From assembly GCA_040753135.1 (NCBI GenBank), contig JBFMGR010000004.1, positions 1 through 54,022 on the forward strand: a stretch of 54,022 bases of DNA. The letters are read 5' to 3'. Both the position numbers and the translations under genes were made by a program. Below, piece after piece: positions 5,633 through 49,526 of this stretch. This DNA comes from Patescibacteria group bacterium (GTDB lineage: Bacteria; Patescibacteriota; Minisyncoccia; UBA6257; Brennerbacteraceae). The notes under the pieces were generated by a model, which saw only the letters and a program-made list of their open reading frames with translations, did no database searches and was not told the DNA's origin. Positions within the stretch are counted from its first letter, which is position 1; each line of letters opens with the position of its first letter.

Positions 5633-6262
5633 ATGACCTATCCAAATTTTAAACAGGAAAGCAAGTTTTTTCAACTGGATAAAAAACCCATTATTGCTCT
5701 GGATGAAGCCGGCCGAGGCGCTTTGGCCGGTCCGGTGGTAGTTGCCGGTGTCTATTTTAAAAAAACCGCCAAAAAACCGCTTCAACCGCCGATCAAAATC
5801 AAAGACTCTAAACAGCTAACTCCAAATCAAAGAAAAATTTTATCTTCATGGTTAAAAAAACAAAAAAATCTTGAATTCCGAGTCTCGCTTTGCCAAGCAA
5901 AGACGGTTGACAAGCTTAATATCCGCCGAGCAACTTTATTGGCAATGAAACAAACAATAAAAAAGTTTAGGAAAAAGAAATTTATTGTTTTTGTTGACGG
6001 CAAAGATAAAGTTCCCGGAATTAAACAAAATCAATATGCTTTTGTCAAAGGCGATGAAAAGATTTTTTCTTTAGCCTGCGCTTCAATTATTGCTAAAGTT
6101 TATCGGGATAAACTAATGACAAGATTGGCAAAAAAATATCCCCAATATAATTTTGAGGTTCATAAGGGCTATGGCACCAAAAAACATTTTCAAAAAATAA
6201 AAAAACACGGCCCATCACCGATTCACCGAAAAAGTTTTTTGCGAAAAAATCTAAAATTTTAA
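5633..6262 (+). CDS. rnhB: Ribonuclease HII
   Basis: DEAGRGALAGPVV active-site motif, about 210 aa. ATG 5633 preferred over TTG 5594. Confidence 0.85.
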   Translation: MTYPNFKQESKFFQLDKKPIIALDEAGRGALAGPVVVAGVYFKKTAKKPLQPPIKIKDSKQLTPNQRKILSSWLKKQKNLEFRVSLCQAKTVDKLNIRRATLLAMKQTIKKFRKKKFIVFVDGKDKVPGIKQNQYAFVKGDEKIFSLACASIIAKVYRDKLMTRLAKKYPQYNFEVHKGYGTKKHFQKIKKHGPSPIHRKSFLRKNLKF

Positions 6263-6280
6263 CTCGCTTTGGAATTACTT

Positions 6281-6587
6281 TGGTGCCGCAGGAGGGAATC
6301 GAACCCCCTACACGATGCTCTTCCTAGCCTTTGTTTTTATATAAAAACCAAAGAAAGGGACTATCTCATCACCCCGATAAGGGGTGCCAGGTCCTAAATG
6401 CAGAATTATTGTTGGAACTCATCTGCTAGTCTCTACACCTTCCTCGCTACCAATGTCCTGCGAGGCTTGGCTCGGGATTATTCTATTAACCAGAACTTCC
6501 CCCGAATTCACCCGGTTTTCATTTCCGCATTACTGCGAAACGGCCCGAAGAGATTAGGCATCTGCTCTACCAATGAGCTACTGCGGC
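6281..6587 (-). tRNA. tRNA-Phe(GAA), intron-containing; exons 6587..6556 and 6323..6281; CCA encoded
   Basis: Hand-folded. 5' exon GCCGCAGTAGCTCATTGGTAGAGCAGATGCCT, 3' exon GAAGAGCATCGTGTAGGGGGTTCGATTCCCTCCTGCGGCACCA. Joined, they give a cloverleaf with anticodon loop CUGAAGA, A73 and a GTGTx variable loop like E. coli tRNA-Phe. Confidence 0.8.
6324..6555 (-). ncRNA. Group I (IC3-like) self-splicing intron in the tRNA-Phe anticodon loop
   Basis: The intron starts AAUCUCUUCGGGC. CUCUUC pairs with 3'-exon GAAGAG (P10), and GGGC pairs with 5'-exon GCCU with a U.G at the splice site (P1). The intron ends in G. The internal strings CCGAGCCAAGC and GAAGGTGTAGAGACTAG match, as I remember them, the Azoarcus / cyanobacterial tRNA intron core. 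There is also a GNRA hairpin GCA-GUAA-UGC. Confidence 0.75.
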
Positions 6588-6596
6588 TTAAAATTT

Positions 6597-13245: not shown

Positions 13246-13317
13246 GGCCTAGTGGCGAAGAGGTAACGCGACTGTCTGCAAAACAGTTATGCGCCGGTTC
13301 GAATCCGGCCTAGGCCT
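13246..13317 (+). tRNA. tRNA-Cys(GCA), no encoded CCA
   Basis: Hand-folded: GGCCTAG/CTAGGCC acceptor, loop CUGCAAA, U73 discriminator (a Cys identity element). Confidence 0.9.
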
Positions 13318-13353
13318 CAAAAATTAACTAACAACTTGCGGCTAAAAATTAAA

Positions 13354-13551
13354 ATGAAGTTTCCGCCAAAATCAAAAACAAAATATATTTTTGACAATGC
13401 TCAAGATAAAAGAATTTTTCAGAAACTGATGAAATTTTCCAAGAAAAAGTTAAACCGTGAACAAAAAGATCTAATCAAAATGATGTTTTCTCAGCTTGAA
13501 GATGATTGGAGGACGCCTCTTGAAAAATTTATTGATAAATTATTAAAATAA
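13354..13551 (+). CDS. Hypothetical 65-aa protein
   Basis: ATG 13354 (MKFPPKSK..) inside track ORF 13336..13551. No recognisable domain. Confidence 0.35.
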   Translation: MKFPPKSKTKYIFDNAQDKRIFQKLMKFSKKKLNREQKDLIKMMFSQLEDDWRTPLEKFIDKLLK

Positions 13552-13627
13552 TTCATTCGCTCGGGTGATAAAACTAAAGAAGATGCAAAACTGCCATTAG
13601 ATTAATGGGAAAACACATAAAAAAATA

Positions 13628-13656
13628 TTGACGATGTGTTTACCATTTATTACAAT
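13628..13656 (+). promoter_or_regulatory. Promoter TTGACG-17-TACAAT positioned for a leaderless HNH mRNA
   Basis: The -10 ends 7 nt before the A of ATG 13663. Confidence 0.5.
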
Positions 13657-13662
13657 CTATAT

Positions 13663-14145
13663 ATGGCAAAGGGACGTTCGTGGGAAGAAAAACAACTTCA
13701 GGAAGCAGTTAAAAAGAGTTTTAGTTATAGACAAACGCTGATTAAATTAGGGTTACGCCCCACGGGTGGAAATTATCACCAAATTAAAAAATATATCAAA
13801 GAATTAAAGGCAGATACCACACATTTCAAAGGAAAGGGATGGAATCTGGGACTTCGGGGTATCGGCAAGCCGCGAATTCCAACCAAAAAAATATTAGTCA
13901 AAAACAGTTCTTTTCAAACTTATAAAGTAAAACAGAGACTTTTCAAAGAAGGATTAAAACCTCAATACTGTGAAGAATGTGGTTGGGCCGAAAAAACACT
14001 TGATGGATATCTGCCGCTCGAACTTGACCATATTAACGGAGACAGAACCGATAACAGAATCAAAAATTTAAGAATCCTTTGCCCCAATTGTCATAGTTTG
14101 AAACCAACTTATAGAGCAAGAAAAAATAAAAAGAAACCTGGGTGA
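13663..14145 (+). CDS. HNH homing endonuclease
   Basis: C-terminal HNH motif CEECGW..LELDHINGDRTDNRIKNLRILCPNCH. ATG 13663 preferred over GTG 13636. The last two codons, GGG TGA, are tRNA-Leu nucleotides 1-6. Confidence 0.8.
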   Translation: MAKGRSWEEKQLQEAVKKSFSYRQTLIKLGLRPTGGNYHQIKKYIKELKADTTHFKGKGWNLGLRGIGKPRIPTKKILVKNSSFQTYKVKQRLFKEGLKPQYCEECGWAEKTLDGYLPLELDHINGDRTDNRIKNLRILCPNCHSLKPTYRARKNKKKPG

Positions 14146-14221
14146 GTGGCGGAATCGGTATACGCGCAGCACTTAAAATGCTGTGCCGCGAGGCTTGAGG
14201 GTTCGAGTCCCTCCTCACCCA
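14140..14221 (+). tRNA. tRNA-Leu(UAA), type II, no encoded CCA
   Basis: Hand-folded: GGGTGAG acceptor, D arm GTGGCGGAATCGGTATACGCGC like E. coli tRNA-Leu, loop CUUAAAA, variable arm GCC-GCGA-GGC. Confidence 0.9.
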
Positions 14222-14228
14222 CACCAAC

Positions 14229-14265
14229 AAACAGCCTCGGCTATTCAGCCGAGGCTGTTTGTTTT
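14229..14265 (+). terminator. Intrinsic terminator after tRNA-Leu
   Basis: 14-bp stem AAACAGCCTCGGCT / AGCCGAGGCTGTTT, loop ATTC, then TGTTTT. Confidence 0.7.
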
Positions 14266-28927: not shown

Positions 28928-28956
28928 TTTGACAATCATAAGGAAGTATGCTATAA
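28928..28956 (+). promoter_or_regulatory. Consensus promoter TTGACA-17-TATAAT (with TGC extended -10)
   Basis: Both hexamers are perfect and the spacing is 17. Confidence 0.65.
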
Positions 28957-28962
28957 TATAAG

Positions 28963-29067
28963 TATAATCGGGGGTTGTCAGAAGGCTGGCGGCCTTAGCC
29001 GCCTAAAGACTCTGTCTTTTGCGGACACCCCCAAACAACTCTCCCCTCGCAACTGCGAGGGGTTTTT
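28963..29067 (+). ncRNA. Candidate ~105-nt structured sRNA (three-way junction + intrinsic terminator)
   Basis: Closing stem GGGGGT(T)GTC/GACACCCCC, hairpins GGCGGC-CTTA-GCCGCC and AAAGAC-TCT-GTCTTT, then CCCCTCGC-AACT-GCGAGGGG-TTTTT. No ORF. Confidence 0.4.
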
Positions 29068-29069
29068 CA

Positions 29070-29098
29070 TTGCTAAAACTAAGTTTTTTTAGTAAAAT
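29070..29098 (+). promoter_or_regulatory. Promoter TTGCTA-17-TAAAAT positioned for a near-leaderless LAGLIDADG mRNA
   Basis: The -10 ends 9 nt before ATG 29107. No SD. Confidence 0.45.
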
Positions 29099-29769: not shown

Positions 29770-29844
29770 GGGCCAGTGGAGCAGCCCGGAGTGCTCGTCT
29801 CCCTGTCACGGAGAAGGTCGCGGGTTCAAATCCCGTCTGGCCCG
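29770..29844 (+). tRNA. tRNA-Asp(GUC), no encoded CCA
   Basis: GGGCCAG/CTGGCCC acceptor, loop CUGUCAC, GTCGCGGGTTCAAATCCCGTC like E. coli tRNA-Asp, G73. Confidence 0.9.
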
Positions 29845-29879
29845 CTAAAAATTTCTAACTAAACTTAGAAAATAAAACA

Positions 29880-48890: not shown

Positions 48891-49526
48891 TCAAAACTTT
48901 GCCATCTTTGATTTTTCTGCTCCTTTCTGGTCAATAATAATTAAAGCATGAAAATCCTGATACAGCCGATAATCTTTAGGCAAATTTTTTTCAAATAAAT
49001 TCTTTAAATAATCATAGGTTAAATTTTTCGCCAAACGATGTTTTTTTACCCAGCGGCGAGTGTATTCATCAATAACAAAACTTGGTTTATCGCAACCGTA
49101 GAGCAAAATTGAATCAGCAGTTTCCGGGCCAATACCATAAAGCGAGAGCAGTTTTTTTCTCGCGACAATTAAATCTTCTTTTAAAAAACCTTTTAAGCCG
49201 GCATAGTCTTTGATTAAAAAAGAACATAAATCCTTTAATCGTTTGGACTTAACGATATAAAACCCGGCTGGTTTAATTAACTTTGCTAAAAATTTTTCTT
49301 TTAGTCCGACAATTTTCTTAATTGACAGAACGTCGATCCGATCTAAATTTTTCAGAGCCAACTCGGCATTATGCCAGGTGGTTCTTTGGGTTAAAACTGC
49401 GCTAATTATAATAATCTCTTTTTGTTTTAGGGTTTTATTCCGAGCGCACCAGTTCGGCCAATACCCAACTGGCTGGTCATATTGATTAAGAAGTTTTTGA
49501 TAAAGCGAATAAATCCTGTTTTTCAT
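48891..49526 (-). CDS. Endonuclease III-like HhH-GPD DNA glycosylase
   Basis: HhH motif LLSLYGIGPETADSILLYG and downstream VIDEYTRRW. The stop lies 1 nt from the tRNA-Arg 5' end. Confidence 0.75.
   Translation of the reverse strand: MKNRIYSLYQKLLNQYDQPVGYWPNWCARNKTLKQKEIIIISAVLTQRTTWHNAELALKNLDRIDVLSIKKIVGLKEKFLAKLIKPAGFYIVKSKRLKDLCSFLIKDYAGLKGFLKEDLIVARKKLLSLYGIGPETADSILLYGCDKPSFVIDEYTRRWVKKHRLAKNLTYDYLKNLFEKNLPKDYRLYQDFHALIIIDQKGAEKSKMAKF

Follow-up and report, generated by a model that had tools for sequence, protein, structure and literature searches.

In phage T4, the GIY-YIG homing endonuclease SegB is encoded in the transfer RNA (tRNA) gene cluster, with which it is co-transcribed, and it preferentially cuts within tRNA genes; maturation of the downstream tRNA-Arg has been proposed to sever the segB stop codon from the last sense codon, lowering expression (PMC2330249). 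In phage T5, the HNH enzymes F-TflI, F-TflII, F-TflIV, and hegA are encoded between tRNA genes, and control of their expression via tRNA processing has been suggested (PMC2330249). HNH homing-type genes linked to horizontally transferred tRNA arrays have also been reported from mycobacteria and cyanobacteria (PMC6582537, PMC8421152). Here, we describe an HNH endonuclease gene that runs directly into tRNA-Leu(UAA) on a contig of a Patescibacteria group bacterium (JBFMGR010000004.1, assembly GCA_040753135.1). The whole stretch of DNA analyzed, positions 1 to 54,022 of the forward strand, is referred to as the window. The gene probably belongs to a free-standing, tRNA-Leu(UAA)-specific homing-endonuclease cassette with a promoter of its own, a relative of the endonuclease genes found in phage tRNA clusters.

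Like SegB, the HNH protein of the window is encoded by a free-standing endonuclease gene among tRNA genes. SegB differs in belonging to the GIY-YIG family, in residing in a phage genome, and in using an upstream middle promoter instead of its own; moreover, neither a duplicated tRNA piece nor a palindrome is on record for it, in contrast to the HNH cassette. The T5 enzymes are larger than the window protein, have other DNA-binding modules, are phage-borne, and are bound to no single tRNA species, and T5 hegA matches the window protein only in the catalytic domain (residues 78–153, 46% identity). Full-length phage homologs, at 35–46% identity, are GodonK gp149 and Sixama gp151 from Gordonia phages and Francesca gp94 from a Rhodococcus phage. 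In Francesca, the order is tRNA-Glu, HNH, tRNA-Gly with 0-nucleotide (nt) gaps, and in GodonK and Sixama the HNH coding sequence overlaps the next tRNA by 10 nt. Phage genes of the PHROG family phrog_10822 resemble the window gene in lying between tRNA genes, co-oriented with them, and tightly packed or overlapping. They occur in multi-tRNA arrays next to varied tRNAs (Glu, Gly, Leu-UAG), however, whereas the HNH clade of candidate phyla radiation (CPR) bacteria, at 60–75% identity, is fixed to chromosomal tRNA-Leu(UAA). The mycobacterial and cyanobacterial genes share with the window a conserved association of HNH and tRNA in bacterial chromosomes or plasmids, but they belong to long accessory tRNA arrays, whereas the window gene is docked with base precision at a single housekeeping-type tRNA.

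Mitochondrial free-standing endonuclease open reading frames (ORFs) of the Allomyces atp6 type bring a duplicated host-gene end with them, and the displaced native piece is left behind as a remnant. The HNH cassette would be similar in carrying a replacement for part of its target gene while a native remnant stays in place; in Allomyces atp6 this concerns the 3' end of an organelle protein gene, and in the HNH cassette it would concern a bacterial tRNA gene and its 5' part. The endonuclease I-TevI represses itself through a homing-site-like operator that overlaps its own promoter. A palindrome around the -35 element of the window cassette resembles this operator and also the hairpin control of T4 intron endonucleases, in which the hairpin encloses a promoter and translation is limited to proximal transcripts (PMC2330249). 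Unlike the T4 hairpin, the window-type hairpin leaves the start codon uncovered in most loci, and binding of the palindrome by the HNH protein is putative. Our literature searches turned up no earlier account, for CPR bacteria, of an endonuclease gene docked at a tRNA, and a paper on insertions in CPR rRNA genes is silent on tRNA. The chromosomal form of a tRNA-docked endonuclease gene seems to be undescribed, while the phage tRNA-cluster form is known.

Results

The HNH gene ends inside tRNA-Leu(UAA)

In the window, tRNA-Cys, the HNH ORF, and tRNA-Leu follow one another on the + strand, and the ORF overlaps tRNA-Leu by 6 nt (Table 1). The ORF ends in CCT GGG TGA (14137–14145), and the tRNA acceptor stem is GGGTGAG/CTCACCC. 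The stop codon TGA at 14143–14145 is thus nt 4–6 of tRNA-Leu, a tRNA gene that both ARAGORN and Rfam find uninterrupted. A sequence-only reading of the window had claimed this layout, with a promoter TTGACG-17-TACAAT, an ATG at 13663, and the stop in the tRNA, and the sequence, promoter scan, ARAGORN, and Rfam all bear it out. An in-frame GTG lies upstream of the ATG at 13636, and the database gene call starts there, giving 169 amino acids (aa). A start at the position of ATG 13663 is found in 43 homologs, with the consensus MRKRSW.

The encoded protein scores above the Pfam cut-offs for both HNH (26.1 bits, cut-off 21.4) and HNH_3 (28.6 bits, cut-off 24.8), in line with the earlier description of the locus as an HNH homing-endonuclease-type cassette fused to tRNA-Leu. 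Across 44 sequences, the motif CxxC..DH..N..CxxCH is invariant (C103, C106, D122, H123, N135, C140, C143, and H144). An AlphaFold2 model with a mean predicted local distance difference test score (pLDDT) of 83 is helical in its N-terminal domain and has the HNH domain at its C terminus, with strands at 120–123 and 136–139 and then a helix. Foldseek returned weak matches to the HNH domains of McrA, Cap5, and I-HmuI, and a sequence search found no solved structure of a close relative. Judged by its sequence, the window protein belongs to the HNH (His-Me finger) endonucleases, and phrog_10822 (HNH endonuclease) matches it over its full length (E 9.5e-46). The ratio of non-synonymous to synonymous substitution rates (dN/dS) was 0.015–0.09 in 24 pairs with unsaturated dS, and the ORF is under strong purifying selection.

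The setting is neither an intron nor a phage. No Rfam family matches 13300–13670, which leaves a group I intron at the HNH locus without a match; IF-2, RbfA, GreA-like, and HhH-GPD proteins are encoded in the window, and the related HNH loci stem from genome bins of CPR bacteria and Elusimicrobia.

Docking at tRNA-Leu(UAA) is conserved across genomes

The window protein has 4863 homologs, and the best 120 share 55–75% identity with it; the taxon-labelled members of these 120 represent many CPR lineages. We took 80 HNH loci from species-representative genomes and called tRNAs with ARAGORN. In all 80, tRNA-Leu(taa) adjoins or overlaps the HNH ORF, and a complete tRNA-Leu(UAA) is predicted downstream. 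The ORF stop lies -53 to +10 nt from the first base of this tRNA in 78 of the 80 loci, half of them (39/78) with the stop inside the tRNA and half (39/78) with the stop 0–10 nt ahead of it. The HNH stop codon is the anticodon TAA itself in L010, L012, L040, and L041, and in L006 and L061 the ORF extends through the entire tRNA-Leu. Some database proteins of the family accordingly end in translated tRNA, for example ...GWRNGIRATLKMS. On the 5' side, the neighbors of the HNH loci vary (tRNA-Cys, tRNA-Gly, a 3' end resembling that of transfer-messenger RNA [tmRNA], or protein genes), so the association concerns tRNA-Leu(UAA) only.

Occupied and empty alleles coexist

Scanning a metagenome with a pattern from tRNA-Leu nt 18–44 gave 120 loci; HNH was present in 41 and absent from 66, and 14 were too short to judge. 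The comparison with empty sites proposed in the sequence-only reading could thus be made with 66 loci lacking the homing endonuclease gene (HEG), including two, L175 and L119, that are syntenic with an occupied locus, L127, at ~70–75% identity. In L175 and L119, a tmRNA-like 3' end is followed by 13–18 nt and then tRNA-Leu, and L127 has a 535-nt insert instead. One type of empty allele consists of tRNA-Cys, a spacer of 1–100 nt, and tRNA-Leu, and the distance between the two tRNAs in HEG+ loci is ~535–670 nt; tRNA-Cys is the customary 5' neighbor of tRNA-Leu(UAA) in HEG-less and HEG-containing relatives alike. A second type has its own -10 element ~9–11 nt ahead of +1 (e.g., L162, L151, L112, and L142). 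An exact RbfA look-up returned no strain-level relatives on record and hence no empty site from the lineage of the window itself.

Related alleles either have or lack the gene at a single site and keep an intact host gene, as is typical of a free-standing HEG. Decayed HNH copies are also found 5' of tRNA-Leu(UAA), with a frameshift in L153 and internal deletions in L088 and L196. A 1.1-kb patch of tRNA-Cys, HNH, and tRNA-Leu is 94–98% identical between L060 (3361–4561) and L063, while the flanks are 72–86% identical; a recent transfer with co-conversion, or gene conversion, would be expected to leave such a pattern.

Two side observations concern these loci. The tmRNA-like 3' end, ...GGTTCAAyTCCCATCATCTCCACA, lies 13–20 nt 5' of tRNA-Leu(UAA) in one lineage (L175, L119, L127, L171, L090, L194, and L198), and the HNH cassette inserts between it and tRNA-Leu. 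In L095 (8141–8608, minus-strand coordinates of the stored locus), an intact HNH copy is ectopic; it comes after an array of tRNA-Val, tRNA-Leu(taa), and tRNA-Leu(aag) and has no tRNA downstream. This is the sole HNH copy of the metagenome loci away from tRNA-Leu(UAA).

The cassette carries its own promoter

The promoter of the window cassette comprises TTGACG (13628–13633), a 17-nt spacer, and TACAAT (13651–13656), followed by 6 nt and the ATG. Within the palindrome, the loop contains the -35 element, and the 3' arm takes up the promoter spacer. The same plan is seen in the upstream consensus of 103 aligned loci: AATGGTAnACG, ~15–20 nt with TTG, CGTnTnCCnTT, TGnTATAAT, ~6 nt, and ATG. A sigma-70-type site matching at least 9/12 positions precedes the ATG in 65 of 108 homologous loci, and the commonest distance from the -10 element to the ATG is 6–7 nt. 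Control sites at the same threshold were found inside the ORF in 1/108 loci and ahead of the tRNA in 6/108; with so few of the latter, an independent tRNA promoter in the 3' end of the ORF was rejected as a candidate.

The 5' arm motif occurs in 33 of 110 HEG+ alleles and the 3' arm motif in 23 of 110, and neither occurs in the 64 HEG-less alleles. The form of the promoter is constant, whatever its 5' neighbor. The promoter travels with the endonuclease gene as part of the cassette. That promoter and palindrome are confined to gene-carrying alleles speaks against a native tRNA promoter. In the window, the palindrome is predicted to form a hairpin with a dG of -11.5 kcal/mol (z -2.9).

Pieces of tRNA-Leu lie upstream of the cassette

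Between tRNA-Cys and the cassette, the window has a second, native-type promoter, and 9 nt separate the end of its -10 element from what looks like the decayed 5' end of a tRNA-Leu. This sequence, GCTCGGGTGATAAAACT, is probably a remnant of the old tRNA 5' part, a view that has weak support in the window itself, where 13 of 17 positions match, and which is better seen elsewhere. In L001, the same 17-mer TGATAAATTATTAAAAT is followed by 9 nt and a clean copy of tRNA-Leu nt 1–27. Clean remnants of nt 1–27 are also found in L011, L050, L072, and L080; in these and other loci, the remnants run from tRNA nt 1 to nt 22–30 (median ~26) and end 41–50 nt ahead of the ATG. The geometry of promoter and remnant equals that of tRNA-Phe in the window and of the empty tRNA-Leu alleles with their own promoter. 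Most simply, these sequences would be the surviving promoter and 5' part of the old tRNA gene, and the cassette would have supplied a new 5' part.

A 71-aa ORF (13336–13551, +) between tRNA-Cys and the cassette is probably spurious. It overlaps the native-type promoter, has 0 homologs in 200 related loci, and gives only sub-threshold Pfam matches.

Table 1. Positions of the features discussed, numbered from the first letter of the window
Feature	Coordinates	Strand	Basis or remark
tRNA-Cys(GCA)	13246..13318	+	ARAGORN + Rfam
Native-type promoter TTGAAA-18-TAAAAT	13520..13549	+	promoter scan 10/12
Decayed copy of tRNA-Leu nt 1-17, GCTCGGGTGATAAAACT (probable)	13559..13575	+	13/17 match to GCTCGGGTGGCGGAACT
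Palindrome 5' arm AATGGGAAAACACAT	13604..13618	+	resembles tRNA-Leu D-loop/D-stem (nt 14-27)
Cassette promoter TTGACG-17-TACAAT	13628..13656	+	consensus scan 10/12
Palindrome 3' arm ATGTGTTTACCATT	13634..13647	+	occupies promoter spacer
HNH endonuclease ORF, 160 aa	13663..14145	+	Pfam HNH + HNH_3
tRNA-Leu(UAA), intact	14140..14222	+	ARAGORN; Rfam 14140-14221, 61 bits
17-pair hairpin + UUUU, intrinsic terminator (predicted)	14226..14263		dG -30.6 kcal/mol, z -8.2
Promoter-like TTGCTA-17-TAAAAT	29070..29098	+	read from sequence; 8 nt 5' of LAGLIDADG ATG
LAGLIDADG endonuclease ORF, 220 aa	29107..29769	+	Pfam LAGLIDADG_3, phrog_4645
tRNA-Asp(GUC)	29770..29845	+	ARAGORN, Rfam

A predicted single transcription unit with a putative leaderless start

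The terminator downstream of tRNA-Leu closes a unit of ~0.6 kb that consists of promoter, HNH, and tRNA-Leu, and it faces a convergent DUF7768 gene. A -10 element that ends 6–7 nt ahead of the ATG, as in most of the 108 loci, is compatible with, but no proof of, a leaderless HNH mRNA, which the sequence-only reading had predicted. That reading had also pointed to the missing Shine-Dalgarno (SD) motif. None precedes the HNH gene, yet an SD-like motif is present in only 2 of the 33 long ORFs of the window, several of which have a -10-like hexamer a few nt 5' of the ATG. Since SD motifs are scarce throughout the window, their absence is a property of the genome and not specific to the HNH gene, and initiation in the host may as a rule be leaderless or SD-free.

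An RNase P cut at 14139/14140 is predicted to leave an mRNA ending in ...AAA CCU with no stop codon, as the sequence-only reading had proposed. Such a loss of the stop codon is plausible and, by analogy with the phage case, published in principle.

A LAGLIDADG gene occupies a similar position

The sequence-only reading had noted that the layout recurs in the window with an unrelated endonuclease family. This holds for a LAGLIDADG gene whose stop codon TAA directly adjoins the start of tRNA-Asp. Six LAGLIDADG homologs in the fetched loci all adjoin or overlap a tRNA 5' end: tRNA-Cys in L187 and L199, tRNA-Leu(gag) in L072, L143, and L041, and tRNA-Leu(tag) in L042. In L199, LAGLIDADG, tRNA-Cys, HNH, and tRNA-Leu stand in a row. 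Pieces resembling the D-arm and anticodon arm of tRNA-Leu lie 5' of the tRNA-Leu-docked LAGLIDADG copies, for example GGAATTGGTATACACtttctcTTTGAG in L143, and no tRNA-Asp remnant above shuffle level was found 5' of the LAGLIDADG gene in the window. Because these loci had been chosen for their tRNA neighborhoods, the sample is biased, and the LAGLIDADG parallel is a lead rather than a result.

Directly 5' of the LAGLIDADG gene (28930–29068, +), we also note a near-consensus promoter, TTGACA-17-TATAAT (28930–28958). It drives a structured, GC-rich RNA (~100 nt) with a terminator hairpin at its end and no Rfam family match. Elsewhere in the window, a group I intron (RF00028, 6329–6565, 54 bits), the only one there, splits the anticodon loop of tRNA-Phe(GAA) (~6262–6590, -). 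ARAGORN missed this tRNA, and trial splicing restored it. The sequence-only reading had used tRNA-Phe as its example of a tRNA gene with a leader of a few nt, and its -10 element TAAAAT does lie 9 nt from +1.

Discussion

We consider a free-standing homing-endonuclease cassette, as introduced above, to be the probable explanation of the HNH locus. The mobile unit would be ~0.53 kb long and consist of a tRNA-Leu D-loop-like piece, a loop with the -35 element, an inverted copy in the promoter spacer, an extended -10 element, and the leaderless HNH ORF, with the tRNA following. The HNH protein would cut or nick HEG-less tRNA-Leu(UAA) in its conserved 5' half, and repair would copy the cassette in. 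The founding insertion would have taken place inside the tRNA, after ~nt 26, with the cassette supplying replacement nt 1–26. With these nucleotides carried along, the junction of ORF and tRNA would be internal to the element and inherited. This would account both for the constant ≤10-nt spacing and for ORFs that, once their own stop is lost, run to the next one inside the tRNA. The cassette promoter would give one transcript, a leaderless HNH mRNA joined to pre-tRNA-Leu and ending at the terminator hairpin. RNase P would free the tRNA, and in the window the resulting non-stop mRNA would be cleared by tmRNA, so that the endonuclease is kept low. The palindrome may serve the endonuclease itself as an operator, or it may form a hairpin that shields the cassette against transcription entering from upstream.

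Several observations weigh against this account or parts of it. Endonuclease activity, target site, transcription start, and the effect of RNase P are all inferred. The tRNA-Leu bodies of occupied and empty alleles show no systematic difference, and a search for immunity substitutions in the occupied genes found none, which leaves a target inside the tRNA unsupported and the escape of occupied alleles unexplained; the duplicated 5' part recreates an intact tRNA and with it, possibly, an intact target. The 5' palindrome arm is equally similar to the local tRNA and to the tRNAs of other loci (P 0.47), and we rejected the idea that each genome derived it recently from its own tRNA. Between the two arms of a locus, resemblance is slightly above chance (P 0.0005). 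Together, these two values indicate a 5' arm piece that moves along with the cassette and probably arose once; a single old origin fits but is unprovable. Pairing of the palindrome arms is 69.5% vs 68.1% in shuffles, and covariation is marginal. The pairing is therefore mostly explained by conservation of each arm, and an RNA helix is retained as a weak option only. A stop inside the tRNA in only half of the loci means that the non-stop effect is no conserved design and cannot be essential. In a neighbor-joining tree of the HNH proteins, which is star-like, taxa are intermixed and the two Elusimicrobia groups lie apart from each other. The tree is too star-like and its taxon labels too unreliable to serve as proof of horizontal transfer, and judged by it, horizontal spread in general would be undemonstrated. 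The cassette also persists vertically within clades (e.g., L031/L044/L009/L043/L064), and this persistence could, together with the very low dN/dS, reflect a host-useful function instead.

That last point leads to a domesticated HNH gene, one that is inherited mainly vertically, no longer homes, and serves the host in defense, in DNA uptake or repair, or by ensuring transcription of tRNA-Leu. Its dN/dS is as low as that of housekeeping genes, it is intact and syntenic through a whole clade whose flanks are 70–82% identical, and its promoter probably drives an essential tRNA. We still regard domestication as unlikely, given the patchy distribution (41 vs 66), the decayed copies, the recent transfer patch, full-length relatives that are phage genes in tRNA arrays, and the lack of conserved partner genes next to it. 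The sequence-only reading had instead placed the insertion in the few-nt leader of tRNA-Leu, with the HEG borrowing the native tRNA promoter and homing to the promoter/tRNA junction. The spacing lends this some appeal, because the -10 element lies 9–11 nt from +1 in some HEG-less tRNA-Leu alleles and in tRNA-Phe of the window, similar to the 6–7 nt between the -10 element and the ATG in the cassette. Many HEG-less alleles have no promoter at all, however, merely tRNA-Cys or the tmRNA-like end and a short spacer, and others have a -10 element of their own; the palindrome that frames the cassette promoter is absent from all 64 HEG-less alleles examined, and the promoter keeps its form across 5' contexts. 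The claim of a borrowed promoter is not upheld by these alleles. The proposed junction target fares no better, since the window and L001 keep a separate native-type promoter and an old tRNA 5' end upstream, and we judge this course of events to be improbable.

Still less probable is a product of site-specific integration or transposition, in which a recombinase would have produced the tRNA 5' repeat as an att-like duplication, with HNH as cargo. A partial direct repeat of the tRNA does flank the cassette in several loci, which is the classic footprint of tRNA-targeting integrative elements; the repeat is the copy of tRNA-Leu nt 1 to ~26 on the 5' side of the cassette, and it is decayed in the window. 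The cassette is only ~0.53 kb long, though, and encodes HNH alone, the window has no integrase or transposase close to it, and the repeat is the 5' part of the tRNA instead of the usual 3' part. As for mere chance, which the sequence-only reading had raised as a caveat for a genome so tightly packed, ordinary genes in the window also adjoin tRNAs: the HhH-GPD (EndoIII-like) gene at 48891–49526 (-) stops 1 nt short of tRNA-Arg(ccg), and 11 nt separate the end of rbfA from tRNA-Cys. Abutment within the window alone is therefore insignificant, and to this extent the caveat stands. It fails across genomes, where conservation makes the layout significant: all 80 genome homologs and every metagenome copy except that in L095 are at the same tRNA species, and this refutes chance abutment.

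The preferred homing-cassette explanation might extend to both endonuclease families. It is conceivable, though we hold it only tentatively and think it rather doubtful as a whole, that the endonuclease cassettes of CPR bacteria, HNH at tRNA-Leu(UAA) and LAGLIDADG at tRNA-Leu(GAG/UAG), invade tRNA genes internally and without an intron, each bringing a replacement 5' part and its own leaderless promoter. HNH would insert after ~nt 26 and LAGLIDADG near the anticodon loop. In the HNH type, the displaced D-loop piece and an inverted copy of it would have become a palindromic operator around the -35 element, a target mimic by which the endonuclease could repress itself, and the cassette promoter would run an essential tRNA, which would make the cassette hard to lose.

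The overlap of HNH and tRNA explains odd database proteins with translated-tRNA tails. It also calls for caution in gene calling, because both the overlap of ORF and tRNA and the putative leaderless start can mislead, as in the call of GTG 13636 instead of ATG 13663. The proteins form a family of compact (~155 aa) nucleases that are probably highly site-specific and have a defined natural target. In one metagenome sample of CPR-type sequences, the HNH cassette occupies roughly 4 in 10 tRNA-Leu(UAA) genes. A strategy known from the tRNA genes of phages T4 and T5 appears here in cellular chromosomes, on what is apparently a housekeeping tRNA-Leu(UAA). If our explanation is true, a selfish gene colonizes a short, highly conserved RNA gene without an intron, by bringing along a promoter and a spare 5' part.

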